64,000 nt of DNA, taken from positions 105,342 through 169,341 of the forward strand of contig CAVOXA010000015.1 in the NCBI GenBank assembly GCA_963700285.1, written 5' to 3'. Numbering within the stretch: position 1 is the first letter of the stretch; the number at the start of each line of letters is the position of its first letter. The stretch is from an uncultured Chloroflexia bacterium. Its GTDB lineage: Bacteria > Chloroflexota > Anaerolineae > JAAYZQ01. The translations under genes were made by a program, and so were the position numbers. The notes beneath the pieces are model-generated. The model searched no databases, was not told the DNA's origin, and worked only from the letters and a program-made list of their open reading frames with translations. Shown one piece after another: positions 6,541-60,442 of this stretch.

Positions 6541-7710
6541 CTACTGAGCCCACAGATGCGCGTACTTGAGCCCGCTCCCGGTGTTGAACAGTGCCACTCG
6601 CTCATCATCGTTGATCCAGCCTTGCTGGCGCAAGTGCTGGAAGGCGACGAGTGTGGCAGCGCCTTCAGGGCAGACAAAGATGCCCTGCGTGCGGCCGATG
6701 AGTTTGGCGGCTTCCAGCATCTCCTGGTCGGACACGGCGATAGCCGCGCCGTCGCTCTCGCGCAGGGTACGGAGAATGAGAAAGTCGGCGACAGCTGCTG
6801 GCACACGCAGGCCGTCGGCAACGGTATGCGCGTTTTGCCAAGGGGCGGCGAATTCCTGGCCTTCCTGGAAAGCGCGGACGATGGGTGCGCAGCCCTCTGA
6901 CTGGACGGTGACCATCCGCGGTCGATGGGAGCCGATCCAGCGCAGTTTCTCCATCTCATCAAAGGCTTTCCACATACCGATCAGCCCCGTCCCACCACCC
7001 GTGGGATAGATGATGACGTCGGGCAGTGCCCAGCTCATCTGCTCGGCCAATTCGTAGCCCATGGTCTTTTTGCCTTCCAGGCGGTAGGGTTCCTTCAGGG
7101 TGGAGATATCAAAGCGGTCGAAGCAGCGCACGCCTTCAGCAGCGGCTCGGCCACAATCGGTGATCAGCCCGTCGACCAGGGTCACCTCGGCGCCCAGGAC
7201 GCGGCACTCGGCCACGAACAGGGGGGGCACGTCCTGGGGCATGAACACGTGAGCCTCCATGCCAGCCAGGGCAGCATAGGCGCTCAATGCTCCGGCGGCG
7301 TTACCCGCCGACGGGATCGAAATTGCCTTGACCCCCAATTCGTGGGCACGGGAGACGGCTACTCCCAGGCCCCGTGCTTTGAACGAAGCAGTGGGGTTCA
7401 GGCCCTCGTCCTTGATGTATAATTTCTCAAAGCCGATGGCTTTGCCCAGCTTCGTTGCGTGGATCAATGGTGTCCAGCCCTCACCAAGGCACAAGGTGTA
7501 GCGTGGATCGCGTACAGGGAGCAGTTCACGATAGCGCCACAGTGTTGTCTCGCGCTCGGCAATCTCCTCGCGACTGAGACGTTGGCGCGCGGTTTCAAGA
7601 TCGTAGCGGGCCAGCAGTGGCTTGTCGCACTTTGGGCAGAGATTCCAAAGCCGGTCAGCCTCAAATTCCCTTCCACAAAGGGCACATTCCAGGTAGGACA
7701 GATAGCTCAT
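6541..7710 (-). CDS. thrC: threonine synthase-like PLP enzyme (ThrC family) with N-terminal zinc ribbon
   Basis: 389 aa. CALCG...CPKC ribbon, PLP-lysine motif NPTASFKARG, and the Gly-rich loop PTGGGTGLIG. Confidence 0.75.
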   Translation of the reverse strand: MSYLSYLECALCGREFEADRLWNLCPKCDKPLLARYDLETARQRLSREEIAERETTLWRYRELLPVRDPRYTLCLGEGWTPLIHATKLGKAIGFEKLYIKDEGLNPTASFKARGLGVAVSRAHELGVKAISIPSAGNAAGALSAYAALAGMEAHVFMPQDVPPLFVAECRVLGAEVTLVDGLITDCGRAAAEGVRCFDRFDISTLKEPYRLEGKKTMGYELAEQMSWALPDVIIYPTGGGTGLIGMWKAFDEMEKLRWIGSHRPRMVTVQSEGCAPIVRAFQEGQEFAAPWQNAHTVADGLRVPAAVADFLILRTLRESDGAAIAVSDQEMLEAAKLIGRTQGIFVCPEGAATLVAFQHLRQQGWINDDERVALFNTGSGLKYAHLWAQ

Positions 7711-32409: not shown

Positions 32410-34251
<1,842 letters not shown>

Positions 34252-34384
34252 GTGGTTTTCCCTCCTGTTGACAAATCACAGGCGGCTCGAGGCTTGCAGC
34301 ACGTAGCCCCGTGGCTACCTGCTGTACAGTTCTTGGAACCTGCAACCTGTCGCTTGTACTTGGTACAACCAACCACTGCGCGGG

Positions 34385-34616
34385 CCCTTTGTCCCGCCGG
34401 TTGCCCGGCGGTTTTGTACGGCGCGCTTGTTCCCAGGAGGGGAAGGTACGGGCCGTGGCCGTGGCCCGGGAGGCATCCGCTGATCACTCGATTTTCGGAT
34501 CGATTTTGTTGTGCGCTGTCGCAACAAAGACGACGCGAACCCCGCCTTGCGGCTGAGGACCTCCTCCTCGTCAACCTTACCATCCTACCAATGGGAGGGT
34601 AAGGCCCATGCGCTGG
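34385..34616 (-). ncRNA. glmS ribozyme (GlcN6P-dependent self-cleaving riboswitch) in the glmS 5' leader
   Basis: Minus strand carries ..CC-A/GCGC.. (cleavage-site context, 34616..34611), GGUUGACGAGGAGGAGGU and CAGCGGAUGCCUCCCGGG (34483..34465). Order and spacing match the glmS core. The 3' boundary is approximate. Confidence 0.8.
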
Positions 34617-34678
34617 CTTCCCCTGTTCACACTGCTACGTTCCGAGTCTCTGTCCCCGAGGGCACCTCCTTTCACTGG

Positions 34679-46945: not shown

Positions 46946-47028
46946 GTGCGCTGCAGAGAGCATGCATGCAATGTTGATGAGGAACAAGAACAGAAAGCCG
47001 TGCGCTTGCCGCGCAGAGGGTTGTGACA

Positions 47029-49121
47029 ATGAAGGCAAAAAAAACGGATACGCTCGATACCATTCGCAACATCGGCATCATTGCCCACATTGACGCGGGC
47101 AAGACTACTGTCACCGAGCGGGTGTTGTTCTATACTGGCTTCACCCACCGCCTGGGCAGCGTGGATGACGGAACCACGGTGACCGACTTTATGCCCCAGG
47201 AACGAGAACGGGGCATCACCATCCAGTCGGCGGCTATCACCAGCACCTGGCGCGATCACCAGATCAACATCATCGATACGCCGGGCCACATCGACTTTAC
47301 TGCCGAGGTGCAGCGCAGCCTGCGCGTTCTGGATGGTGGTGTGGTGGTATTCGACGGCGTGGCTGGCGTGGAGCCCCAATCGGAGACCGTCTGGCGCCAG
47401 GCCGACCGCTACGGTGTGCCCCGCATCTGCTTTGTGAACAAGATGGACCGCATGGGCGCCGACTATTGGCGTACCATCGACAGCATCACCAAGCGGCTGG
47501 GGGCAAAGCCTGTAGCGGTGCAGTTACCCATTGGGTCGGAGAGACGACTTTTGCGGTATCGTGGATCTGATCGATGAAAAGGCCATCGCCTATTGCGACG
47601 AGGACCACACCGAGCCGGCGATATGCAATGTACCAGAGGAGATGCGAGCTGAGGTGGCCCGGCGGCGGGACGAGATGATCGAAAACTGGCCGAGCTGGAC
47701 AGCGAGGCCTCTATCGAGCTGGCGGAGCTGTACCTGGAAGGAGAGGAGCTGTCCCCGGCGCTGCTCCGGGCGGTCCTGCGCCAGGCGACACTCGCCGGGG
47801 AGGTGGTACCGGTGCTGTGTGGCACGGCTTTACGCAACAAAGGGGTCCAGATTGCTGTTGGATGCTGTGGTGGACTATTTGCCCTCGCCCCTGGACGTAC
47901 CGCCCATGACTGGCAAGGATCCTGATACGGACGAGGAGGTCGCCTGTCTGCCCGGACCCTGGCGCGCCGACTGCGGCCTTGGTTTTCAAGATTAATACCG
48001 ACCCTTACATGGGCAGGCTGACCTATTTCCGCGTCTATTCGGGAGCCGTGCGGCGGGGCGAATTCCTGCTCAATGCCAATAGCGGCAACCGGGAGCGGAT
48101 CGGCCGCTTGGTGCGCATGCACGCTGATCGCCGCGAAGAGGTGGATGAGATCCGAGCCGGAGACATTGGCGCTGTGCTGGGCCTCAAGGCTACAACCACA
48201 GGCGAAACCCTGTCTGCTGAGGAACGGCCCGTGGTATTGGAACAGATCACATTCCCTGCTCCGGTCATTGAGCTGGCAGTCGAGCCGTACACCAAGGCTG
48301 ACCAGGACAAGTTGGGCTTGGCCCTTAAGCGATTGACGGATGAAGATCCTACCTTCCAGGTACGCCATGACGAGCGCCTGGGACAGACGATTCTCGCCGG
48401 CATGGGCGAACTTCACCTTGAGGTGCTACTGGATCGCCTGCGCCGCGAGTTTGGTGTTGGTACCAAGGTGGGGCGTCCCCAGGTGGCTTACTATGAGACG
48501 ATTACCCGCCCAGCACGTGCCGAGGGCCGGCTGGTCAAGCAGACAGGGGGGCATGGCCAGTTCGCCGTGGTGGAGTTGGAGGTCGAACCCCTGCCCTCTG
48601 GCAGTGGCTTCCTCTTTGAGAATAAGGTAGTGGGTGGGAACGTACCGCGGCAGTACATCTCTGCCGTTGAGGCTGGCGTACACGATGGCATGACTCGTGG
48701 TGTGTTGGCCGAGCAACCCATGGTGGACATCAAGGTCACTCTGGTGGACGGCAAGGCGCACGACGTGGATTCGTCGGAGCGAGCTTTTTCCACGGCGGCG
48801 TCCATGGCTCTGCGTCAGGCCGTTGGCCAGGCTGGTCCCATCCTGCTGGAGCCGATCATGCACGTAGACGTATTGACGCCCGAAGACTATACAGGGGATG
48901 TCATTGGTGATCTGAGTACCCGATCTGCCAGCATCACGGGTATTGACTCGCGAAATGGCAGTGGCCAGTCTATCCAGGCCGATGTTCCGCTTGCGGCGAT
49001 GTTCGGCTATGCCACATCGCTGCGGTCCCGAACCCAGGGCCGGGGAGCTTTTGTCATGCAGTTCGATCACTATGCTCCGATATCGCCTGAAGTGATAAAA
49101 GAACGGGAGAGAGCCCACTAA
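47029..49121 (+). CDS. fusA: elongation factor G paralog, at least 4 frame disruptions between ~47545 and ~47975
   Basis: The G domain is intact ([26 protein letters not shown]). The sequence then hops frames: GSE|[12 protein letters not shown]|[15 protein letters not shown].., NKGVQ|[13 protein letters not shown], ..[20 protein letters not shown]. Domains II-V are intact in ORF 47979..49121. It is not in an rpsL-rpsG-fusA-tuf context. Confidence 0.85.
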
Positions 49122-49228: not shown

Positions 49229-49279
49229 GTAACCTGATGGACATCAGCTTTGATGCAGTTTTTCTGGAGGTGGGAGGCT

Positions 49280-50266
49280 ATGGGTTTCTGGGCTGACTTG
49301 AAGTATAGGCTTCAAAATCTCTTTGGGCTGGAGACATCTTTTCCCTTGGGCGACGAAGTACTGCCTCAAACCTTGCAGCCCCGCGTGTTGCTGATCACCT
49401 TCAATCCTGTCATCCGCTCGGAAGGCGGCAGAAAGCTGACAGACGTCCTGGGCTGGTGCAACATTGATGAGTTGTGCCGCGAGTACATTGCCGATCTGCG
49501 CGAGTGCAGTGGTGGCTTTTTAGAGTACCGGATCGTCCAGCGAATTGGGATCGACGCCTGGCCGAGGAAAATAGACGGCTTTCGCTATGATGGGGATAGT
49601 TACCTACAATGCTGGCGCAACCGGACAGGCTTCCACGATCCAGACGCCGTCGACTATGAGGCTATCCTCGAAGAGTTTGATCTTCTGGCTCGCGTCGAGT
49701 CGGACCAGATTGATGAGGTATGGTTATTCGGCTTTCCCTATGCCGGTTTCTACGAATCGCAGATGATTGGGCCCAAGGCTTTTTGGTGCAATTCACCGCC
49801 CATGTCGCGCAATGATGGGATCTCGCGCCGGTTTGTGATCATGGGCTTTAACTATGAGCGAGGCGTGGGCCCCATGTTGGAGTCCTTTGGGCACCGTGTT
49901 GAATCGCATCTCCAGTACGTCTGGCGTCGTCGGAGGGGCGAGGACAACCTATGGGAGCGATTCATCCGCTACGACAAGGTCTCCCCCGGGCGGGCGAACT
50001 GTGGTTGGATGCACTATGCCCCCAACAGTCTCACGGACTATGACTGGGGCAACCCGACCAGAGTACAGAGCAACTGCGACGACTGGCTCAACTTTCCCAA
50101 CTTTCAGGGTGCCTGGGGAGTGGTAGATTGTCGTGACTGGGGAAACGGCGATATGCGCGCTCATCACAAGTGGTGGTTCAAGCGCCTGCCCAACGCCCCA
50201 GGTGACACGCAGGGAATCTCTAACAACTGGTGGCTCTATGGCGTGGACCCCAACAGGGCCGGCTAG
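49280..50266 (+). CDS. hypothetical Trp/Cys-rich protein, no recognisable family
   Basis: ORF 49250..50266. ATG 49280 follows GGAGGTGGGAGG. Globular-looking sequence (..EVWLFGFPYAGFYESQMIGPKAFWCNS.., ..CGWMHYAPNSLTDYDWGN.., ..AHHKWWFKRLP..). Confidence 0.5.
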   Translation: MGFWADLKYRLQNLFGLETSFPLGDEVLPQTLQPRVLLITFNPVIRSEGGRKLTDVLGWCNIDELCREYIADLRECSGGFLEYRIVQRIGIDAWPRKIDGFRYDGDSYLQCWRNRTGFHDPDAVDYEAILEEFDLLARVESDQIDEVWLFGFPYAGFYESQMIGPKAFWCNSPPMSRNDGISRRFVIMGFNYERGVGPMLESFGHRVESHLQYVWRRRRGEDNLWERFIRYDKVSPGRANCGWMHYAPNSLTDYDWGNPTRVQSNCDDWLNFPNFQGAWGVVDCRDWGNGDMRAHHKWWFKRLPNAPGDTQGISNNWWLYGVDPNRAG

Positions 50267-52246: not shown

Positions 52247-52503
52247 AGGGCCGTACCGAGTTCTGACGCCCACTGTCATGACGGTGGTGTGTTGTCGTCA
52301 GGCAAGGGGTGCGATAGCGGTGTACAATGGCCGTGCAGATTAGGGGTGTGCGACAACAGGGAGAGTTGTCTTGGGAACCAATGCGTTGCCCTGATCCATG
52401 GAGCGATTCACGAAGGCAAGCGCACGAACCTTGGGCCGAAACTTTGTGGGGCCTCCCTGCGTAGTAGAAGTGGAACTCACATACCCAATTGAAAGATGCA
52501 TAA

Positions 52504-53937
52504 ATGACACAACCATTGGCCATTGGAACAGTACTGAAAAACCATTACCGCATTGTCCGCCTGGTTGGAGGAGGCGGAATGGCCTGGGTCTACCAGGTGG
52601 AGGAGCTGCCGCCCGCCAGTGGCAATCTCTGGGCCCTCAAAGAACTGCGCCCCCAGACCCAGGATAGGGAGGAGCGGGCCACTGCCCGCAAGCTCTTTGA
52701 ACAGGAATCTTTGTTGCTCCGCGATCTGGACCACGTGAACATCCCCCAGATCGCCGGCTTTTTCGAGGAGAACGGCCGGGCATGCCTGGTGATGGAGTTC
52801 ATATGGGGCGAATCGCTGGAGAAACGGTTGGAAGCTGCCAACGCGCCCTTGTTGGAGACCGACGTGCTCAAGTGGGCTGTCCAGCTCTGCGAAGCATTGG
52901 ACTATCTTCATGCCCGCCAACCGCCTGTCATCTTCCGTGACATGAAGCCCAGCAATGTAATGGTGACCAATACCGGACTGGTCAAACTGATTGACTTTGG
53001 TATCGCGCGTACCTACAAGGTGGGGAAAAAGCGGGATACGGTAGCTATGGGCTCTGAGAACTATGCAGCGCCAGAGCAATGGGGCAAAGGCCAGACCGAC
53101 GCCCGGTCCGATATCTATGCTCTGGGTGCTACGATGTATCACCTGCTGGCCAATATGGCCCCAACGCCGGCCTTTCTGCCATCTGAACCGCTGCCCCTGC
53201 GCAACTATAACGGTGCGCTCTCGGCAAAGACTGTGACACTCGTTGAGAAGGCCATGGACCGCGAGCGGAGCAAACGTTTTCAGTCGGCTGTAGAAATGCG
53301 CAAGGCGCTCATCGACGCCCTTCCGGGACCGTATGTTGCACCAGTGGTCCCCGCCGTCCACCATCCTGTGTCCAAGGCGGCAACAGGTACCGGTCAGGGC
53401 CCGGCCAGGGCCACTGGCGCTTCCACTACCTCGGGTTCTACAGGGGCCGGGGCATCCGTTCAGCCCCCGGTGCAACGCGAGCCCCAACCGGCGCTCAGGC
53501 CAGCGCACCGGCCAGCGCCTCCGCCAGCCAAGGCTTGTCCAGCCTGCGCGCGGGCCAACAGGCAGAACGCTCGGTTTTGCGTTGGCTGCGGTCATTCCTT
53601 TGTGCCCCTTGGGCCAGCCGTGTTGCGCGTCGTCGAGCCAGTGCGGGCTGCCTGGGAGATGCCTGTGGCTCACAGCCCGACGCTGCTGGGCCGTGCCAGT
53701 GAGGCCGAGGGCTACCGGCCAGACTTTGACATGACGTTCTATGATGAAGGCGACTATGTCTCTCGCCGCCACGCGCGGATCACCAAAGGCCGTGTGGGCT
53801 ATTTTGTCACCGATCTCGGCAGCAGCAACGGTACTATGGTCAATGGGCAGCCATTGGCGCCCAACCGCGCCCGCTTGTTGCGCAATGGTGACCGGCTCAA
53901 AGTCGGTTTGGTCGTTATCCAGTTTCGGTTGGGATAG
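52504..53937 (+). CDS. Ser/Thr protein kinase with a C-terminal zinc ribbon and FHA domain
   Basis: Hanks motifs GGGGMAWVY, ALKEL, FRDMKPSNV, DFGIA and APEQ. Pro/Ala linker, CPACARANRQNARFCVGCG, then FHA (GRASE...VSRRHARI...DLGSSNGTMVNGQ). Confidence 0.85.
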   Translation: MTQPLAIGTVLKNHYRIVRLVGGGGMAWVYQVEELPPASGNLWALKELRPQTQDREERATARKLFEQESLLLRDLDHVNIPQIAGFFEENGRACLVMEFIWGESLEKRLEAANAPLLETDVLKWAVQLCEALDYLHARQPPVIFRDMKPSNVMVTNTGLVKLIDFGIARTYKVGKKRDTVAMGSENYAAPEQWGKGQTDARSDIYALGATMYHLLANMAPTPAFLPSEPLPLRNYNGALSAKTVTLVEKAMDRERSKRFQSAVEMRKALIDALPGPYVAPVVPAVHHPVSKAATGTGQGPARATGASTTSGSTGAGASVQPPVQREPQPALRPAHRPAPPPAKACPACARANRQNARFCVGCGHSFVPLGPAVLRVVEPVRAAWEMPVAHSPTLLGRASEAEGYRPDFDMTFYDEGDYVSRRHARITKGRVGYFVTDLGSSNGTMVNGQPLAPNRARLLRNGDRLKVGLVVIQFRLG

Positions 53938-54011
53938 AGTTCCCAGCCAGGTCTGCGGAAGCTTCATGATCTGTCCAAAAGACCCCGACGAGAGTCGATA
54001 GGAGGTAGGTA

Positions 54012-55814
54012 ATGAACTGTTCCGCATGTGGAACGGACAATCGAGATGGGGCCAATTTCTGCCGGATGTGCGGTAAGCAGATTTCCGAACATCTCCAGGA
54101 TCAGGTCACAATTACAGGCGGAGACGAGGCTGGGGCCAAGGACGGTCCTGCCCCCGGCCAAGATCTGAAACTTGAGGCAGATCTAGCAACGTCAGTATCC
54201 GTAGATGAACTGCCTGTAATCGAATTGCCAGAAATGCTTCCAAAGGACTTGTACGCGGAACTGCAGGAAGGAGTGGATGGAGAACCAGAAATACCGTCCG
54301 GGGTGCAGGCGGAGGATGTGTCCCTGGGTGGAGAACCCGTGCTCGAGGCGGAGGCTGCGAAGGAACCATCTGAGGGATCGGGAGTGGAAACCGAGATAGT
54401 AGAGGGCGAGTTCGATCAAACTGTGCCTGAAACCCACCTGGCAGTAGAACCACCTGAGGCTGGAGGGTTTGGGTCTGCCATACCGGCCGACTCTTCTGGT
54501 CCTGCAGTCCCTACTGAAGTCGGGGGAAGCGACGTTGAGGCGAGTATGGCGCAAGAAACAGAGGCCCCGCCTGGAGAACCAGTAGCTCAGACAACTAGAC
54601 CAGAAGCTCAGCCGGTAGAGGGCGCTGGTGAGGCCGAAGACGGGACAGTCATCCCTGAGCTTGTCACGTCTGACAGCATGATGCCACTGGTGCCGGGAAC
54701 CGTGATTGGCGAGCGCTTACGGATAGTGGGAGTGCTGGATGACGAGGAAGACGAGATCCTTTATCTAGCTCACGATCTGCTTCGATGCTGGCAGTGTGGT
54801 TTCCAGGACAATGAGCCTGACGATACCTTCTGCGCCCAATGCGGCGCGTCTCTGGATCGCGAGGCGCGGGTGCGCCTGCTGGAGGTCCAGAGCAAGGAGG
54901 CCGAGCCATCCGGCGGCGAGGCTGTGGCTGCCCGGCTCAGCTACGAAGGACGCCATTTTCTTCTTCTGGCAGAGCCAGATGCGGCGATTGAGGTGGAATC
55001 GGGATCCAGTGCTCCAGGTGTGCCCCAGAGTGTTCGGCTCGTGGTGGGGCAGTACTCTGATGCTGGCCGGGTTCGCGAGCTGGATGAGGATAGCCTGCTG
55101 GCCCTGACCCTGGCTCCCACCTACGAATCGCGGACCGGCCCGGTGTTGGGCCTCTTTGCTGTGGCTGACGGAATGGGGGGCCACGAGGGCGGCGAAGTCG
55201 CTAGCAAAGTGGCATTGCAGGTACTGGCCGATGTGGTGTTGCGCAGTATTGTGCTGCCGGCACTGGCGGATGAAGATCTTCTGGAGGAGGAGATCATTGC
55301 CCGCCTGAGTCAGGCGACTGTGAGTGCCAATGACGCTGTGTACCTGGCCCGCCAGAAGCGGGGAAACGACATGGGGACGACCTTGACCACAGCTCTGGTC
55401 AGGGATGACCGGCTCTTCTTGGCCCATGTGGGCGATTGCCGTGCTTATCGATGGGGAGCTGACGGCCTCCAGCAGCTAACCACCGACCATTCGCTGGTGG
55501 CCAGCATGATTGCCAGCGGCCAGGCTGCGCCTGAAGAGATCTATACCCATCCCCACCGCAGCGTCATCTATCGCTGCGTCGGCGACCAGCCAGTGGTGGA
55601 GGTTGATACGGACGTCGTGTCCCTTGTCCCAGGTGACCGGATCCTTGTCTGCTGTGATGGCCTGTGGGAGATGGTGCGCGACGAAGGCATCAGAGATGTC
55701 ATGATGCAGGAAGCTGATCCCCAGGCTGCCTGCGAGATGCTGGTGAATCATGCCAATGTAGCAGGCGGTGATGACAACATCAGCGTCATCATCGTACAGA
55801 TCAAGGGTGCATAA
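54012..55814 (+). CDS. PP2C-family Ser/Thr phosphatase with two zinc ribbons and a ~190-aa acidic linker
   Basis: N-terminal CSACGTDNRDGANFCRMCG. An E/P/V-rich acidic region. An internal CWQCGFQDNEPDDTFCAQCG. C-terminal PP2C motifs (FAVADGMGGHEGGEVAS, GTTLTTAL, VCCDGLWE, GGDDNISVIIV). Confidence 0.85.
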   Translation: MNCSACGTDNRDGANFCRMCGKQISEHLQDQVTITGGDEAGAKDGPAPGQDLKLEADLATSVSVDELPVIELPEMLPKDLYAELQEGVDGEPEIPSGVQAEDVSLGGEPVLEAEAAKEPSEGSGVETEIVEGEFDQTVPETHLAVEPPEAGGFGSAIPADSSGPAVPTEVGGSDVEASMAQETEAPPGEPVAQTTRPEAQPVEGAGEAEDGTVIPELVTSDSMMPLVPGTVIGERLRIVGVLDDEEDEILYLAHDLLRCWQCGFQDNEPDDTFCAQCGASLDREARVRLLEVQSKEAEPSGGEAVAARLSYEGRHFLLLAEPDAAIEVESGSSAPGVPQSVRLVVGQYSDAGRVRELDEDSLLALTLAPTYESRTGPVLGLFAVADGMGGHEGGEVASKVALQVLADVVLRSIVLPALADEDLLEEEIIARLSQATVSANDAVYLARQKRGNDMGTTLTTALVRDDRLFLAHVGDCRAYRWGADGLQQLTTDHSLVASMIASGQAAPEEIYTHPHRSVIYRCVGDQPVVEVDTDVVSLVPGDRILVCCDGLWEMVRDEGIRDVMMQEADPQAACEMLVNHANVAGGDDNISVIIVQIKGA

Positions 55815-55961
55815 GATGGATGCCTGGGCGACCTTGAGTGGGGGGACAATGCTCGCCGGCCCTTCAGATCCAGCAATCGCCCCGGTATTGTGAATAGAAC
55901 GACCGTGCGGTTCGCACGTATAGGATAAGCCATGATAATGGCCAATGTAAGGAGGGATGAT

Positions 55962-57215
55962 ATGGCCAACGATTTGACTCTGACCTGCCGGCTCAACAAG
56001 GCCTATCTGCCGGTTATGAACACCCAGCAGCTAGTGTACGTGCTCATCGATGCGGTACCGGGCGCGAGCATGGCGCAGGTCCAGATGCCACTTAACCTCA
56101 GCTTGGTGCTGGACAAGAGTGGCTCGATGCAAGGAAAAAAGATCCAGAACTTGCGAGAGGCGGCCAAGCTGGTGGTGGATCGCCTGGGACCGCAAGATAC
56201 CATCTCCATCGTCGCCTTTAGCGACCGAAAGTATCTGATCGCCACCAGCCAGCCGATCACAGACAAGGGAGCACTCAAAACAAAGATTGACCGGATCCGC
56301 GATGGTGGCGGAACTGCTATCTCTGGCGGCATGAATCAGGGACTGACCGAGTTGGGCAAGGCCGCATCCCCTGATCGAATCAGCCGGATGCTGCTCTTGA
56401 CAGACGGTCAGACCTTTGGCGACGAGAAAACGTGCAAACAGCTGGCCCAAAAAGCTGGCGACCAGGGCATCCTGGTCAATGCACTGGGCCTGGGTGACGA
56501 TTGGAACGAGGATCTATTGGATGACATCGCCGCAGCCAGCGGTGGCGTGGCCGACTTTATTGATTCGCCCAACAAGATTGTCACCTTTTTTGAGCAGGCT
56601 GTCCAGTCCATGCAGGACAGCGTGGTGCAGAACGCGCAGATGGTTCTGCGTCTGGCCAGCGGCGTCACACCCCGCCAGGTTTGGCAGGTCCTGCCCCTGA
56701 TCTCGAACTTGGGCTACCGCCCTCTGTCGGATCGCGATGTGCAGGTCGCCCTCGGCGAGATGGAGAAAGGCCAGCCACGTAGCTTGCTGGTAGAGCTGCT
56801 GGTTGGCCCCCGGCCTGCTGGCACCTATCGTGTTGCCCAGACGGAGGTCAGCTATGACGTACCCGGCTTGAAGCTTTCCGGCGAAAGGGTCAAGTCCGAC
56901 ATCCTGCTCAGCTTCACAGCCAATGCTGCTGAAGCCAAGGACTATGAGCCTGAAGTAATGAACATCGTCGAGAAGGTGACGGCCTTCAAGCTCCAAACCC
57001 GGGCGCTGGAAGAGGCCAAGATGGGCAACATAGCCGGCGCCAGCCAGAAGCTCCGTGCTGCTGCCACCCGCCTATTGGAGATAGGCGAAGACGATCTGGC
57101 ACAGTCGGCGCTAGAAGAGGCCGAGAACCTGGAGACGAGCGGCCAGATGTCTTCTCATGGTACCAAAAAACTGCGCTACGAGACGCGCAAGCTGACGCAG
57201 CGCCTGAGTCCCTGA
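55962..57215 (+). CDS. von Willebrand factor type A (vWA) domain protein with an intact MIDAS motif
   Basis: ATG 55962 follows AGGAGGG. LVLDKSGSM (DxSxS), GGTAI and LLTDGQ. A beta-rich middle part and a helical Thr/Ser-containing tail. Confidence 0.85.
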   Translation: MANDLTLTCRLNKAYLPVMNTQQLVYVLIDAVPGASMAQVQMPLNLSLVLDKSGSMQGKKIQNLREAAKLVVDRLGPQDTISIVAFSDRKYLIATSQPITDKGALKTKIDRIRDGGGTAISGGMNQGLTELGKAASPDRISRMLLLTDGQTFGDEKTCKQLAQKAGDQGILVNALGLGDDWNEDLLDDIAAASGGVADFIDSPNKIVTFFEQAVQSMQDSVVQNAQMVLRLASGVTPRQVWQVLPLISNLGYRPLSDRDVQVALGEMEKGQPRSLLVELLVGPRPAGTYRVAQTEVSYDVPGLKLSGERVKSDILLSFTANAAEAKDYEPEVMNIVEKVTAFKLQTRALEEAKMGNIAGASQKLRAAATRLLEIGEDDLAQSALEEAENLETSGQMSSHGTKKLRYETRKLTQRLSP

Positions 57216-57328
57216 ATGCCAGGGATTGTGGCATCCTCTGCTGCATGAATGTCAGATCAGAGGGGTAGGAAGTACCAACAAGCGTCTTTTTGTTTAGCAT
57301 GTACGACCGAAGAAGGAGGAACCGAATC

Positions 57329-58333
57329 ATGCCAACATGCCCAAACTGTGGAAATGAAACTGCAGCAGGTGCTATTTTCTGCGACCAGTGCGGAACGCAG
57401 ATCCCGGCGTCCGGGTCTGCTGTTCCAGAGGCGCCACCCGCCCCGGCCGGTGGCAGCATAATCTGTCCCGCCTGCGGCGCGGGCAACGTGCCGGGCGAGG
57501 CCTTTTGCGACTTTTGCGGCTCTCCCCTGGATGCGCCAGTACCGGCAGTCGTAGAGGCACCCATGCCGGCGCCCGCCGAGGTTGAGGTAGCAGCCGATGC
57601 TGTACCTGACGAAGATCAATCCATATGTCCAGCCTGTGGGGCTGAGGTCCAGCCTGGAGAGGCCTTTTGCGCCAATTGCGGGGCATCGCTTGTCGAGCCC
57701 ATACAGGCGCCAGAGGCAGGAGATGTGGTAGAACCGCCAGCCGAGGGAGTGCCCCTCGCCGCCGATGGGCAGGTTCCTGAGGCACGAGAAGCGATAGAGC
57801 CTGTCGCTGAGGAAGTACCTGAGGTGCGAGAGGTCGTGGTTGAGGAATCAGCTCCGCCACCGCCTGCCCCAGAGCTGGTTGCCGCGCCCACCTGTCCGGC
57901 CTGTGGCGTGGAAATCGTCGCTGGTGACAAGTTCTGCAGTAACTGTGGGGCAGTGTTGCAGGCTGTGGCTGAGCCAGCAGTGGCTGAGGTAGCACCGCTG
58001 CCTTCACCTTCCGCCGGCCCGCGTTTGGTGGTCGTTGCGTCCGGGGCTGAGATCCCACTTCCGACTGCTGATGAGATACTGATTGGCCGTGAGGACCCGG
58101 TGAGCGGCGTCTTCCCCCAGGTGGATCTGACACCCCATGGTGGTGAGGAGGGAGGGGTTTCTCGCAGGCACGCGCGGCTGATTGTCAAAGGTCTCAACTA
58201 CTCTGTCGAGGATTTGGACAGTACCAACTATACCTTCGTCAACAAGCAAAAGCTGGCGCCCGGAATCAGCCATCCGGTTCGTGATGGTGATGAGATCCGC
58301 TGCGGTCGCGTGACGCTGGTCCTGAGAACCTGA
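57329..58333 (+). CDS. FHA-domain protein with four tandem zinc-ribbon modules
   Basis: ATG 57329 follows GAAGGAGG. The ribbons are CPNCGNETAAGAIFCDQCG, CPACGAGNVPGEAFCDFCG, CPACGAEVQPGEAFCANCG and CPACGVEIVAGDKFCSNCG, separated by P/A/E linkers. C-terminal FHA (GRED...VSRRHARL...DLDSTNYTFVN). Confidence 0.85.
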   Translation: MPTCPNCGNETAAGAIFCDQCGTQIPASGSAVPEAPPAPAGGSIICPACGAGNVPGEAFCDFCGSPLDAPVPAVVEAPMPAPAEVEVAADAVPDEDQSICPACGAEVQPGEAFCANCGASLVEPIQAPEAGDVVEPPAEGVPLAADGQVPEAREAIEPVAEEVPEVREVVVEESAPPPPAPELVAAPTCPACGVEIVAGDKFCSNCGAVLQAVAEPAVAEVAPLPSPSAGPRLVVVASGAEIPLPTADEILIGREDPVSGVFPQVDLTPHGGEEGGVSRRHARLIVKGLNYSVEDLDSTNYTFVNKQKLAPGISHPVRDGDEIRCGRVTLVLRT

Positions 58334-58416
58334 TACCAGGTACGGGGGATTGGAGATTGCAGAGATGATGTGCATCGCAATGCCTAGTTTCTGTTCTCCA
58401 GTCTCCCAGTTGCCTT

Positions 58417-60294
58417 ATGCAACATTGTCGTGAACTGGTGTGCGGCCATCTCAACAGGCCGAGTGCTCGCTTCTGTGAAAAGTGTGGGCAGCCGCTGCGC
58501 GGTCAAAGTGATCGCCCGGCGGATGCCTGGTCCGCCTTGCCTTCAGGACACCTGATGCGGGGTGGCACCTATCGTATCCTTGAGCCGCTGGGCAAAGGAG
58601 GGATGGGCGCGCTCTATCTGGCGGCCGATACAGGTGCCTTTGACCGGAAGTGTGTGGTCAAGGAACTCCTAGACTACTACGATCCCACAAACCCCGACGA
58701 AGCCCAACTGGCCCAGGATCGCTTTGAAACTGAGGCTCGCCTGCTGGCTGAACTGAGCCATCCTGGAATTCCACGTATCTATAGCTTTTTCTCCGAGGCT
58801 GGGCGTCACTATATCGTAATGGAATATATCCAAGGGGAGACACTGGAGCGCGCGGTGACTCACGTCGATCCTCTTGGGTTCACCATCGCGGCACACCAAC
58901 TTTCCGCTGAGACGGCTGTGCGCCACGCTATCCGAATCTGCCGGGTTCTGGAGTATCTGGCCAACCAGCCAATACCCGTAGTGCACCACGACATCAAGCC
59001 TGCAAATCTCATCGTGGACCGAACCAGTGGAGAGGTGAGGCTGGTGGACTTTGGTACCGCCCAAACCCGCACCCGCTGGGCCACCCAGGCCCGACTGGAC
59101 CAACAACCCTCGATGCTTTTTGGCACCCCCGGATATGCGGCGCCGGAGCAATACCGGGGCAGCTCAGAGCCACGATCGGATGTCTATGCTCTGGCTGCCA
59201 CCCTGTATCACATTCTGACCGACGACGATCCTGGCGAGCATCCTTTTCAGTTCACCAACATGGGAGGCCTGCCCGCTTCGCTGGCTGACGCCCTGGGCCG
59301 AGCCCTGCGTCCAGAGGTGCAGCGGCGCAGTACTGCATTGGAGTTTCGGCATGCGTTGGCAGGTTGGTTCATTCCCGATGAAGCTGCCCAACCCTTCGTT
59401 TTTCGCTCAGGAGCCGTAGCCCATACCACAGAGGAACTGGTTCTTCTCTGCGATCGGTATTGGCCCGAAGCCCGACTGCACCTGAGCGACGGAGATTTTG
59501 ACCAGTGGTTCCGTACTCGCAATCGACACGACCTCGTGGCGAAAGCCAGGTCGGCAAAGCTCGAGAGGAACGCCGACGCTGCGCTGGAGGTGTTTCTGAG
59601 GCGCCTGAATCCACGCTTGGCGGCGCCAAGCCTCGTCATCGAGCCACTGAACCTGGATTTTGGACGGATAACCCGCAGTGGAGCCGTTCCGCGCCATCTA
59701 CGGGTGTGCAATGAGGGCAGGGGCTATGCTCAGGCGAGCCTGAGTACCCCGGTGCCCTGGATACTCATCGAGCGATCTCGGGTAGGATGTCTGTCGGGCA
59801 CAGAAATCTCCGTAGAGGTTCAACTTGACGCCACAGCGTTGTCTTTGCAGAGAGATCACCAGACTGTCATCGCCTGTACGCCAGATCGTGGCGCAAGAAT
59901 CTCCATTTCGGTTGTGGCCGAGTTGAATTTGGTCCGGGAGGCGCTGCGGCGGATCGCTGCGGCTTTCACGGCGGTAGCTCACCTGGCCGTTAGAGGAGCC
60001 CGGCGCGGGTGGGGGTTTTGGATGCGAACCTTTCGCAGCCTGCTCCGGTCCCGCTATGGGCTGTGGATCCTGGGGGCCGAGGCTGTGATACTGGCTGCGG
60101 CGATGGTGGCTCTGTGGTGGATCTGGCCTGACTCTTCGCCTGCCTTGGACGACTTGGCTCGGGCTCTGATCCTGATCGTACCGCTATCGCTGCTGGTCGT
60201 CTATCTGCTGCCAGCGATCGCCTTCGTCGCCGGATTTGTCGTCTGGGAGGTCGTCCGGGGCATGGCGGGCTGGGCGAGGGCCGCCACGCGCTGA
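58417..60294 (+). CDS. membrane-anchored Ser/Thr protein kinase with an N-terminal zinc ribbon
   Basis: CRELVCGHLNRPSARFCEKCG, then kinase motifs (GKGGMGALY, VVKEL, HHDIKPANL, DFGTA, APEQ). A ~200-aa middle region of unknown fold, and two C-terminal TM helices. Confidence 0.85.
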   Translation: MQHCRELVCGHLNRPSARFCEKCGQPLRGQSDRPADAWSALPSGHLMRGGTYRILEPLGKGGMGALYLAADTGAFDRKCVVKELLDYYDPTNPDEAQLAQDRFETEARLLAELSHPGIPRIYSFFSEAGRHYIVMEYIQGETLERAVTHVDPLGFTIAAHQLSAETAVRHAIRICRVLEYLANQPIPVVHHDIKPANLIVDRTSGEVRLVDFGTAQTRTRWATQARLDQQPSMLFGTPGYAAPEQYRGSSEPRSDVYALAATLYHILTDDDPGEHPFQFTNMGGLPASLADALGRALRPEVQRRSTALEFRHALAGWFIPDEAAQPFVFRSGAVAHTTEELVLLCDRYWPEARLHLSDGDFDQWFRTRNRHDLVAKARSAKLERNADAALEVFLRRLNPRLAAPSLVIEPLNLDFGRITRSGAVPRHLRVCNEGRGYAQASLSTPVPWILIERSRVGCLSGTEISVEVQLDATALSLQRDHQTVIACTPDRGARISISVVAELNLVREALRRIAAAFTAVAHLAVRGARRGWGFWMRTFRSLLRSRYGLWILGAEAVILAAAMVALWWIWPDSSPALDDLARALILIVPLSLLVVYLLPAIAFVAGFVVWEVVRGMAGWARAATR

Positions 60295-60413: not shown

Positions 60414-60442
60414 TTGACATCACCCCGAGCCTGTGGTATACT
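60414..60442 (+). promoter_or_regulatory. consensus sigma70 promoter (TTGACA-17-TATACT, TG-extended) upstream of fdrA
   Basis: TTGACA at 60414..60419 and TATACT at 60437..60442 preceded by TGG. This leaves a ~265-nt leader before ATG 60714. Confidence 0.5.

Follow-up and report, generated by a model that had tools for sequence, protein, structure and literature searches.

A five-gene kinase, phosphatase, vWA and FHA operon of Chloroflexota: a probable larger, bacterial form of the archaeal ArnA-ArnB switch

Among the characterised phosphorylation systems, the closest relative of the operon described here is the archaeal ArnA/ArnB module, part of the network that regulates the archaellum in Sulfolobus. 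ArnB contains a vWA domain that splits a beta-sandwich, and its C-terminal part forms a Thr-rich helix bundle in which all of its phosphosites lie, with the kinases ArnC and ArnD acting as the writers (PMC6509490). In the 2026 co-crystal of the complex, the zinc ribbon of ArnA rests on the beta-sandwich and the bundle of ArnB, and tight binding of the FHA domain is switched on by phosphorylation (PMC12852372); the authors of the structure found no hint of DNA binding by the ribbon. ArnC has been described as a combination of an OB domain, a TPR-like stretch and a kinase domain, and the literature we consulted describes the Arn kinases without ribbons. The depositors of 8S05 regard ArnAB as an archaeal counterpart of the Sec23/24 core, with the zinc finger, the vWA-like trunk, the beta-sandwich and the helical domain as the shared parts. 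A bacterial system of similar composition is encoded by DRA0331-DRA0334 of Deinococcus radiodurans (a vWA protein, a Ser/Thr kinase (STK), an FHA protein and a PP2C phosphatase). A preprint has shown biochemically that DRA0333 (FHA) and DRA0334 (PP2C) act antagonistically on kinase phosphorylation; it names DRA0333 a FraH orthologue, the term "zinc ribbon" appears nowhere in its text, and the vWA protein lies outside its assays. Seen against this background, the five-gene operon appears to be a larger, bacterial form of the ArnA-ArnB switch rather than a new kind of system.

The operon occupies positions 52504-60294 on the + strand of a stretch of 64,000 nucleotides from an uncultured Chloroflexia bacterium placed by GTDB in the Anaerolineae (hereafter the 64-kb window). 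Its products are, in order, an STK-ribbon-FHA protein (P1), a ribbon-spacer-ribbon-PP2C protein (P2), a vWA protein (P3), a protein with four ribbons and an FHA domain (P4) and a ribbon-STK-TM protein (P5). A first-pass annotation had described five same-strand genes with these domains and eight ribbons; the ORF listing returns all five genes at the same positions, and the Pfam searches and a regular-expression scan agree with the rest. P1 (52504..53937, +) is a soluble Hanks-type Ser/Thr kinase, whose kinase domain (52546-53343; Pkinase 2e-40; FRD, DFG and APE intact) is followed by a Pro/Ala-rich linker, a single basic zinc ribbon detected by the regular-expression and six-frame scans (CPACARANRQNARFCVGCG, 53536-53592) and a C-terminal FHA domain (53683-53907; 1.6e-15). 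P2 (54012..55814, +) begins with a basic ribbon (R1, 54018-54074) and continues into a strongly acidic spacer of about 200 aa (54084-54686), initially put at about 190 aa, in which residues 25-225 of the protein comprise 47 D+E versus 5 K+R. A conserved middle domain (54666-55040) embeds an acidic ribbon (R2, 54786-54845), and the PP2C domain itself (55029-55805; PP2C and PP2C_2 at about 1e-15) retains its metal motifs, as read in the translation. Pfam ribbon families match two stretches of P2 (4e-9), and NCBIfam assigns it to Stp1_PP2C (6.5e-63) and PRK14559 (1e-34). The middle domain also shows a weak alignment to a kinase N-lobe.

P4 (57290..58333, +, with the start probably at 57329) is an ArnA/FraH-like adaptor, in which four acidic ribbons (R1-R4, 57338-57394, 57464-57520, 57626-57682 and 57893-57949; Zn_Ribbon_1 1.3e-26 over the four stretches) are separated by Pro/Ala/Glu-rich linkers and precede a C-terminal FHA domain (58079-58306; 2e-13). 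P5 (58417..60294, +) is a membrane-anchored Ser/Thr kinase with an N-terminal ribbon of the form C-x4-C...C-x2-C (58426-58488; weak Zn_Ribbon_1), a kinase domain (58570-59376; Pkinase 1e-28) with the catalytic motifs found in both kinases (FRD/HHD, DFG, APE), and a C-terminal part of 305 aa that returned zero Pfam matches and includes a beta-strand-rich region (about 59632-59925). The two C-terminal TM helices noticed initially are borne out by hydropathy, which gives two stretches (residues 547-570 and 580-613; 60055-60126 and 60154-60255) that correspond to 2-3 helices.

The vWA protein P3 (+ strand; 417 aa; 55962..57215, with the longest ORF running from 55932) is the member that defines the relationship. 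Its true start is probably M11 (55962), because the homologues are 417 aa long; the upstream gap is then 147 nt. The vWA domain (about 56082-56615; VWA 2e-19) is inserted into a beta-sandwich, and its MIDAS (D-x-S-x-S, T, D), intact as first described, shows no variation among 29 diverse homologues. The AlphaFold2 model (pLDDT 93.4, pTM 0.88) adds a C-terminal four-helix bundle (56922-57212), and Foldseek searches with this model rank 4FX5 (TM-score 0.75), ArnB from 8S05 (0.64-0.71) and 5A8J at the top, while the best PDB match of the P3 family profile is 8S05_A (ArnB, 1e-31). The Thr/Ser-bearing helical tail reported by the first-pass annotation is present and strongly conserved: within the protein, constraint is highest in the bundle, where 30 of 97 positions are invariant in 79 orthologues (vWA domain: 31 of 178), and the last helix pair of the bundle retains Thr/Ser and basic residues. 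This basic, Thr/Ser-rich end (ETSGQMSSHGTKKLRYETRKLTQ, about 57135-57200) includes T-K-K-L and T-R-K-L, and analogous T-x-x-(L/I/M) repeats are found in distant homologues. At the sequence level the likeness of the P3 bundle to that of ArnB is weak (11.7 bits), ArnB_C was not matched in the Pfam search of P3, and the identity between P3 and ArnB in the structural alignment is low (15-19%).

P3 and P4 are nonetheless homologous to ArnB and ArnA, respectively. P3 shares with ArnB the tripartite fold, with the vWA domain in a beta-sandwich and a Thr-rich C-terminal bundle, and P4 shares with ArnA the four-Cys ribbon, the low-complexity linker and the FHA domain; the N-terminal ribbon (R1) and linker of P4 align with the ArnA chains 5A8I (4.5e-4) and 8S05_C (1.4e-3). 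The adaptor gene adjoins the hub gene, as arnA adjoins arnB, and in both systems the writers are Hanks-type kinases and the eraser is a Ser/Thr phosphatase. The differences from the Sulfolobus system are also clear: the cassette is bacterial, with all enzymes within one operon; its eraser is a PP2C rather than a PP2A; its adaptor carries four ribbons instead of one; and its three enzymes, the two kinases and the PP2C, bear ribbons as well. Archaellum genes are absent, so the output of the cassette must differ from that of the ArnAB network.

We think it probable that this bacterial cassette corresponds, in expanded form, to the archaeal ArnA-ArnB phospho-switch and brings all the enzymes of the switch together in one operon. 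P3 would be the cytosolic, ArnB-like hub and main substrate, whose Thr/Ser cluster would be phosphorylated by two writers, the membrane-tethered P5 and the soluble P1; the FHA domain of P1 may bind primed sites and thereby extend the phosphorylation. P2 would be the eraser, and P4 the reader, with its FHA domain binding tightly to the phosphorylated bundle. The ribbons could serve as small docking tags that keep reader, writers and eraser loosely on P3 regardless of its phosphorylation, presumably on the beta-sandwich or helix bundle, like the ArnA ribbon on ArnB, and P4 with its four ribbons might either hold more than one hub or vie with the ribbons of the enzymes for binding. Such docking has only one direct precedent, the lone ribbon of the archaeal ArnA, whose interface is small and weak. 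As the output, the hub complex may change its conformation or its state of assembly close to the membrane.

The ribbons deserve separate consideration. The regular-expression scan counts 1, 2, 0, 4 and 1 four-Cys ribbons in P1-P5, eight altogether, and a six-frame scan of the 64-kb window finds eight CxxC-x8-14-CxxC motifs, seven of them within the cassette and the remaining one in a PALP enzyme (7627-7686, - strand). Hence the concentration in the cassette is far from chance. The P5 ribbon is non-canonical here and has CxxC in more distant orthologues. Every ribbon is kept position by position among orthologous loci (both ribbons of P2 in 24 orthologues), and two conserved charge classes can be discerned: a basic one (mean net charge +1 to +2.8) comprising the ribbons of P1, P2-R1, P5 and P6, and an acidic one (mean -2 to -2.8) comprising P4 R1-R4 and P2-R2. 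The first-pass annotation considered the ribbons unexplained by known models. For ribbons as such this no longer applies: the ArnA ribbon docks on ArnB, which offers the ready explanation that ribbons may be docking tags for the hub, the STK of TerY-P also bears a ribbon, and NCBIfam already has models for ribbon-bearing kinases ("4Cys_prefix_kin") and ribbon-PP2C proteins (PRK14559). It does apply to the presence of ribbons on every enzyme together with a four-ribbon adaptor, which is undescribed as far as our literature search went.

On the other hand, the same phospho-signalling module could use its ribbons not as hub-docking tags but as metal or redox sensors, with the Zn or thiol state controlling activity, or as anchors to acidic lipids or nucleic acids that merely co-localise the proteins. 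The two charge classes would suit such a role, as would the anchoring of P5 in the membrane; for TerY-P, a metal-sensing switch has been hypothesised, and ribbons of the RanBP2 type are able to bind RNA. Moreover, the ribbons of the enzymes (P1, P2-R1, P5) are basic, with the motif NRxxARFC, whereas those of ArnA and P4 are acidic, so the enzyme ribbons may bind something else, be it the membrane, nucleic acid or the acidic linkers of P2 and P4. Nevertheless, the only solved ribbon of this module type is a protein-protein docking element on the vWA hub, for which the structure gave no sign of DNA binding, P4-R1 is precisely the ribbon that aligns with it, and four tandem ribbons on a non-enzymatic protein are more in keeping with multivalent protein binding than with sensing. 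We therefore consider the sensor or anchor function unlikely, though not negligible.

The cassette may also be compared with conflict or anti-phage systems: detection of infection would then fall to the kinases, the vWA protein would assemble or set off an abortive response, and the ribbons would bind nucleic acids, as proposed for the TerY-P kinase ribbon. The kinase-PP2C-vWA proposals mentioned in the first-pass annotation have indeed been made. By definition, the TerY-P triad consists of vWA, PP2C and STK-zinc ribbon, and a TerY-P-like module has been reported as a stand-alone defence system; Kaur et al. tied kinase-ribbon, PP2C and vWA genes to GTPase-centric conflict systems of multicellular bacteria, and both TerY-P and this actinobacterial GAP1-N2 GTPase theme have been proposed to involve a phosphorylation switch, as we propose here. 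P1 and P5 match PADLOC kinase models, and distant P3 homologues reside on cyanobacterial plasmids beside GTPase and extra vWA genes. However, the PADLOC matches of the kinases are generic kinase-domain matches, and in the same search P3 and P4 had no match and P2 only a weak one to PDC-M21C. P3 is a 417-aa ArnB-like protein and not a small vWA protein of the TerY type, and FHA proteins are integral to the cassette. The flanks hold housekeeping genes (ThrRS, rplT, EF-G, NmrA, PPK2 and an FdrA-like gene), with no effector, restriction, Ter, GTPase or mobile-element genes among them; PPK2 is kept upstream in relatives, the GC content of the region is uniform, and the locus is stable and looks vertically inherited. 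The vWA protein, with more than 120 clusters at >=83% identity, is the most conserved member of the cassette (79-97% identity over many species), usually the opposite of what is seen in the fast-evolving defence genes. With housekeeping flanks, apparently vertical inheritance and no PADLOC match for P3 and P4, nothing points to a defence role; the genomic context lends no support to the conflict-system role raised earlier, which we regard as quite improbable. Regulatory housekeeping in filamentous Chloroflexota, rather than phage defence, is the most likely role.

Could the cluster simply be an incidental gathering of unrelated signalling genes, decorated with ribbons that are common in Chloroflexota? 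Ribbon-prefixed kinases are indeed common enough to have an NCBIfam model of their own, a ribbon-PP2C model exists as well, and in related loci a ribbon is present in 46 of the 54 kinases encoded in the vicinity of the vWA gene, among them paralogues that do not belong to the five-gene core. But gene order, orientation, ribbon counts and per-position ribbon signatures recur in 25 species-level Chloroflexota genomes, mostly Anaerolineae, at vWA identities of 53-97%, and 25 loci have the P1 orthologue in the corresponding place. The core set (vWA, ribbon-FHA, ribbon-STK-TM and PP2C) also occurs, with the gene order changed, in four other phyla, represented by KSB1, Caldithrix, Deinococcus (DRA0331-0334) and a cyanobacterial plasmid (Gloeothece). 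Taken with the homology of two components to an experimentally interacting pair and with the crowding of canonical ribbon motifs into this part of the window, this makes an incidental cluster very improbable, and the coherent writer, eraser and reader unit with a vWA protein, suggested from the one sequence, is retained down to 53% vWA identity. Least credible of all is a threonine-phosphorylation pathway of the PpkA/PppA/Fha1 type controlling a secretion or envelope machine whose genes lie elsewhere, which had been named as the closest logic: the domain-level parts list is equal (Hanks kinase, PP2C, FHA and vWA jointly forming a pThr switch) and the FHA domains weakly match TagH/VI_FHA, but their scores of 41 and 24 bits are far under the 120-bit cut-off of the VI_FHA model, T6SS genes are found neither in the window flanks, as already noted at first sight, nor in 80 related loci, and the vWA domain, which in PpkA is a periplasmic part of the kinase, is here a separate cytosolic protein of the ArnB fold that lacks both a signal peptide and TM segments.

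The cassette also resembles several further systems. It is homologous to DRA0331-DRA0334, where the vWA protein is 26% identical to P3 over 96% of P3 and has a similar T/K-rich tail, and DRA0332 has the same ribbon-STK-TM architecture as P5. The Deinococcus FHA protein is built like P4 (ribbon, linker, FHA) but has one ribbon, its PP2C is long, with an N-terminal extension like that of P2 but no ribbon, and the operon comprises four genes in another order, with no STK-FHA kinase. FraH of the filamentous bacterium Anabaena begins with a double zinc ribbon, continues with a proline-rich middle part and ends in an FHA domain, i.e. the same plan as P4 when the two are compared by description alone; we know of no reported link of FraH to a vWA hub. 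Sec23/Sec24 of the COPII core are the next-best structural matches of P3 after the ArnB family, at lower TM-scores (about 0.55) and with no evidence for a coat function; in the cassette, the zinc ribbons sit on separate proteins and there is no gelsolin domain. As to the arrangement of the hub and its adaptor, the ribbon-FHA gene lies immediately 3' of the vWA gene in 37 of the 65 assessable loci, with four ribbons in 24 of these 37. An observation that fits the proposed switch less well comes from the Chloroflexia, where the vWA orthologue is found by itself in housekeeping surroundings, so the hub can work, or at least be encoded, apart from the kinases.

The first-pass annotation had described five tandem genes on one strand at 52504-60294 with intergenic gaps of 74-147 nt, and both this arrangement, which lies on the forward strand, and the claimed domain content are borne out, by the ORF read-out and by Pfam searches with all five proteins, respectively. 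P1 (52504-53937) comprises a kinase domain (Pkinase, 2e-40), one zinc ribbon placed C-terminally to it by a regular-expression scan, and an FHA domain (1.6e-15). P2 (54012-55814) carries an N-terminal ribbon, a second, internal ribbon and a PP2C domain; its spacer, noted earlier as acidic, is strongly so, with 47 Asp and Glu versus 5 Lys and Arg among 201 residues. P3, which ends at 57215, contains a VWA domain (2e-19), P4 (57290-58333) combines four Zn_Ribbon_1 stretches (1.3e-26) with an FHA domain (2e-13), and P5 (58417-60294) has a weak N-terminal ribbon and a kinase domain (1e-28). The catalytic motifs of the P1 and P5 kinases are intact, as are the PP2C metal motifs of P2, as read from the translation. 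P5 has two C-terminal hydrophobic stretches, and the number of its TM helices, first given as two, is better put at two or three. The original count of ribbons holds: the regular-expression scan finds exactly eight 4-Cys ribbons in the cassette. In a six-frame scan the canonical CxxC-x8-14-CxxC pattern occurs eight times in the window, seven times within the cassette and once in a PALP enzyme. The true start of P3 is most likely 55962, because its homologues are 417 aa long, and that of P4 is probably 57329. Promoter and terminator signals within the cassette are at background level only, so the operon structure rests on gene spacing and synteny. An antisense ORF of 516 aa at 52477-54027 on the reverse strand, which covers all of P1, can almost certainly be dismissed as a shadow ORF caused by high GC content. 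P2 also contains a conserved middle domain (residues 219-343; 54666-55040), in which the second ribbon is embedded. A weak but collinear alignment with the N-lobe of the P5 kinase (hhalign E 0.0019, probability 14%) raises the possibility that it is such an N-lobe in degenerate form; the corresponding region of the Deinococcus homologue carries the annotation KI-FHA. Pfam searches at E up to 10 with this domain, the C-terminal half of P3 and the C-terminal 305 aa of P5 returned neither ArnB_C nor any other informative family.

The AlphaFold2 model of P3, the vWA protein, is confident (pLDDT 93.4, pTM 0.88) and shows a vWA domain with strands on both sides and four C-terminal helices. The top structural match in the PDB according to Foldseek is 4FX5, a vWA protein from Catenulispora (TM 0.75), followed by chains A and B of 8S05, the complex of the archaeal zinc ribbon-FHA protein ArnA with its vWA partner ArnB (TM 0.64-0.71), and by the ArnB paralogue 5A8J; all these matches (TM 0.56-0.75) extend over approximately 425 columns, and Sec23/24 ranks behind them. 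The profile of the P3 family likewise finds ArnB (8S05_A) as its best PDB match (1e-31), to which the C-terminal part adds only 11.7 bits. The Foldseek ranking and the profile match together identify P3 as an ArnB-like protein. The MIDAS, previously described as intact, is invariant among 29 diverse homologues. The most constrained region is the C-terminal bundle, in which 30 of 97 positions are invariant among 79 Chloroflexota orthologues, including positions of the helix MNxVEKVxAFKLQTRAL. The Thr- and Ser-bearing helical tail recognized earlier is also real: conserved Thr and basic residues are found in the last helix pair, which bears ETSGQMSSHGTKKLRYETRKLTQ, including T-K-K-L and T-R-K-L, and residues 392-412 contain seven Ser and Thr. 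Many FHA domains favour a hydrophobic residue at pT+3, which T-K-K-L and T-R-K-L would supply. The tail is strongly basic (pI 11). Distant homologues have analogous repeats, such as the Deinococcus sequence GTAKTLKIGAKTQTL and the Gloeothece sequence GTRKTVKMGSKGKTVKM. A subfamily of approximately 490 aa within the ArnB-like vWA family (P0156, P0162, P0176, P0207 and P0225 in alignment A1 of the P3 family) possesses an N-terminal DnaJ J-domain and retains the conserved C-terminal GxKxLxYGTRxL tail; its sequence hints at a link between this type of hub and Hsp70.

The comparison with the Arn network can be extended from the fold to the gene arrangement. In Sulfolobus acidocaldarius, all phosphosites of ArnB are located in the C-terminal helix bundle, where they are phosphorylated by the kinases ArnC and ArnD, and the bundle region is also bound by ArnA (PMC6509490). 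According to a co-crystal structure from 2026, the beta-sandwich and bundle of unphosphorylated ArnB dock the ArnA zinc ribbon, and sequential phosphorylation shifts the complex to tight binding of phosphothreonine by the FHA domain (PMC12852372). P3 is predicted to have the same architecture, with a vWA domain that interrupts a beta-sandwich and a helix bundle at the C-terminus, and the gene for a 4-Cys ribbon/linker/FHA partner, P4, lies directly downstream. P4 and ArnA share the order of ribbon, Pro/Gln/Ala-rich linker and FHA domain, the genes of both adjoin that of the hub, and the first ribbon of P4 with its linker matches the ArnA chains in phmmer searches (5A8I, 4.5e-4; 8S05_C, 1.4e-3); the aligned ribbons are CNLCGYENDDDALFCIKCG in ArnA and CPNCGNETAAGAIFCDQCG in P4. 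By analogy, the Ser/Thr-rich end of the P3 bundle is a candidate phospho-acceptor for the Hanks kinases encoded in cis. Unlike the Arn network, in which the eraser is of the PP2A type, the cassette encodes a PP2C, its host is a Chloroflexota bacterium, and neither the window nor the related loci contain archaellum genes.

A second relative is the cluster DRA0331-0334 on chromosome II of Deinococcus radiodurans, which encodes, in this order, a vWA protein (26% identity to P3 residues 3-403 in tblastn), a ribbon-STK-TM, a ribbon-FHA and a long PP2C that, unlike P2, lacks ribbons. DRA0333 (FHA) and the phosphatase DRA0334 have opposing effects on the phosphorylation of the kinase, according to a study that assayed proteins other than the vWA protein. 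We regard the cassette as a bacterial, expanded module of the ArnAB, DRA0331-0334 and TerY-P-like kind.

P3 is strikingly well conserved. It has more than 120 clusters of vWA proteins (clustered at 90% identity) with identity of at least 83%, and an exhaustive search retrieves 639 clusters (at 50% identity) with full-length matches at E<1e-30. When each GTDB species, represented by a single genome, was scanned with a 10-sequence alignment of the P3 family, 404 loci were obtained, the best 80 of which were analysed. The closest relative (L001) is a 408-kb MAG contig labelled Chloroflexia/Anaerolineae, which shares all five genes and the upstream genes with the window. Among the best 80 loci, 25 have the identical order (STK-ribbon-FHA, ribbon-ribbon-PP2C, vWA, 4xribbon-FHA, ribbon-STK-TM) and ribbon counts, with vWA identity of 53-97%. 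In the same set, 65 loci could be assessed for the gene directly 3' of that for the vWA protein, and in 37 it is a ribbon-FHA gene, with four ribbons on the FHA protein in 24 loci, three in nine, two in two and one in two, and a PP2C gene is directly 5' of the vWA gene in 32 of 62. In the loci compared, the vWA protein is always the best-conserved member. The core set is also found outside Chloroflexota: reduced versions occur in KSB1 and Caldithrix MAGs, and a Gloeothece plasmid (L085) encodes a vWA protein, ribbon-FHA, PP2C, STK-FHA, a hypothetical protein and ribbon-STK in order. The first-pass annotation had named a restriction of the synteny to close relatives as speaking against its proposal, and the recurrence in Chloroflexota and other phyla shows that there is no such restriction.

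In many Anaerolineae relatives the operon is enlarged to eight genes (L016, 12257-16195; L009, L012, L017, L019, L020). Of the additional genes, one encodes a second ribbon-STK, for which no TM helix is predicted and whose C-terminal region, rich in beta-strands, is larger (in L016 it contains two matches to the C-terminal segment of P5); the other two encode a short PP2C (~282 aa) and a ribbon-STK-ribbon protein (~415 aa). All three are absent from the window and from its closest relative. The idea that ribbon number tracks kinase number was dropped, as the eight-gene relatives have four kinases and four adaptor ribbons versus two kinases and four adaptor ribbons in the window. Chloroflexia (Chloroflexus, Oscillochloris, Roseiflexaceae; L051-L082) keep a vWA orthologue with 50-52% identity, usually solitary among housekeeping genes, with tpiA upstream and surE downstream (e.g. 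L077, 8001-9263, from Oscillochloris trichoides); most of these loci have no kinase, PP2C or FHA gene within 8 kb. Conservation of the hub in the filamentous Chloroflexota is extreme, which points to a core cell-biological process. The Gloeothece plasmid and the Nostoc plasmid pNsp_h (L084) encode distant hub homologues (25-27% identity). In Nostoc, a gene with a GTPase domain and another vWA gene, whose product is TM-anchored, are among the neighbours; in Gloeothece, they comprise additional vWA genes, a member of the ARC6/PARC6 family and a serine hydrolase. Both contexts resemble published GTPase-centric conflict systems.

Other assignments of the cassette fail on defining features. One is a TerY-P defence system, with which the cassette has a common domain logic: a single operon encodes vWA, PP2C and an STK whose zinc ribbon is C-terminal. 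However, P3 has the ArnB fold, and PADLOC does not recognize it as a TerY-type vWA; PADLOC gave generic kinase-domain matches and no family for P3 or P4, a result whose weight depends on the TerY-P models in that release. The flanks of the cassette contain no Ter genes, restriction systems or defence islands, and the closest relative shares the upstream genes. We rejected defence as the main reading and consider such a role quite improbable. As to the GTPase-centric GAP1-N2 conflict systems, which have a kinase/PP2C/vWA theme, the flanks examined contain no GAP1 or GAP1-type GTPase gene, the EF-G paralogue being the only GTPase gene there; a GTPase context is confined to the distant hub homologue on the Nostoc plasmid. 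The threonine phosphorylation pathway of type VI secretion (PpkA/PppA/Fha1), which the first-pass annotation had offered as the closest known logic, must be abandoned, since matches to TIGR03354 (VI_FHA) reach only 41 and 24 bits versus a cut-off of 120 and the flanks contain no T6SS genes. The earlier interpretation is supported in part, and the observation itself stands.

The preferred comparison with ArnAB also bears on the ribbons, which had seemed to be beyond known models. Ribbon fusions are already catalogued (NF045510, 4Cys_prefix_kin; the ribbon-PP2C model PRK14559), and 46 of 54 kinases in the best 80 of the 404 related loci bear ribbons, so the ribbon as such is ordinary; the switch logic, the fold and the precedent for ribbon docking are published as well. 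What is new is that every enzyme bears ribbons and that these enzymes are combined with a tetravalent adaptor and an ArnB-like hub at the centre, an arrangement for which our literature searches found no describing paper. In 23-25 orthologous cassettes each ribbon has its own position-specific signature, and two classes can be distinguished. The basic class (P1, the first ribbon of P2, P5 and the paralogue P6) has an NRxxARFC motif and a mean net charge of +1 to +2.8, and the acidic class (the four ribbons of P4 and the second of P2) a PGEAFC-like motif and a mean net charge of -2 to -2.8; the ArnA ribbon is of the acidic type. Together with the basic tail of P3, these classes suggest that partner exchange could depend on charge and phosphorylation.

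We propose that P3 would serve as both hub and substrate, with P5 as a membrane-tethered writer, P1 as a soluble writer whose FHA domain would bind primed sites, P2 as the eraser and the FHA domain of P4 as the reader; by analogy with ArnA, the ribbons may act as docking tags by which every component is held at the hub. It is tempting to go further and consider the ribbons as a common code that directs proteins to an ArnB/Sec23-24-like hub, with a phospho-ordered swap of partners and cross-linking of hubs, even though we regard this as an unlikely, if attractive, possibility. The acidic ribbons (all four of P4, the second of P2) and the basic ones (kinases, P2 N-terminus) would then attach to one surface of the hub or to adjacent ones, the charge of its basic, Thr-rich tail would select the ribbon class, and phosphorylation would make writer, eraser and reader take turns in a fixed sequence. 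With its four ribbons the adaptor would cross-link hubs at the membrane, and the resulting higher-order assembly would be under phospho-control. If true, this would represent a prokaryotic "in trans" version of the zinc-finger/trunk/beta-sandwich/helical core fused in Sec23/24, and provide a general function for the widespread DZR and zinc_ribbon_2 modules of bacterial kinases.

Until now the ArnA-ArnB pair has counted as a peculiarity of archaea, and phospho-regulation has been reported to be absent from most ArnB-like proteins of bacteria (PMC12852372); the cassette would extend the ArnAB switch to bacteria. With hub, reader, two writers and eraser side by side, and relatives in at least five bacterial phyla, a hub-centred phosphothreonine switch is probably ancient and widespread. 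Short 4-Cys ribbons are found on a great number of Ser/Thr kinases, phosphatases and FHA proteins of bacteria. Their putative role as docking tags for a vWA hub is testable, and the cassette is well suited to this, as it has a single hub and eight ribbons that fall into two charge classes.

The genes flanking the cassette are housekeeping genes, and GC content is uniform across the region. Upstream are genes for ThrRS, an FGGY kinase, rplT, a SpoU methylase, DUF711, an EF-G paralogue, a conserved hypothetical protein, NmrA and PPK2, and downstream is that for an FdrA-like CoA ligase. Between the cassette and the latter, a sigma-70-like near-consensus promoter (60414-60442, forward strand; TTGACA-17-TATACT, extended TG) is a strong promoter-like site of the FdrA-like gene's own and marks the 3' boundary of the operon. 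The EF-G paralogue (47023-49121, forward strand) is split over ORFs in three frames (47023-47577, 47531-47995 and 47979-49121) versus an intact orthologue of 696 aa in L001, which indicates two frameshifts; it is either a pseudogene or the product of an assembly indel error. A Trp/Cys-rich protein of 338 aa, encoded at 49250-50266 on the forward strand, has no Pfam match and is 91% identical to its counterpart in L001 (2245-3234). On the reverse strand, a glmS ribozyme (34370-34625; Rfam RF00234, 41.3 bits versus a 37-bit threshold) sits just upstream of an ORF of 613 aa (32410-34251), which is presumably glmS.
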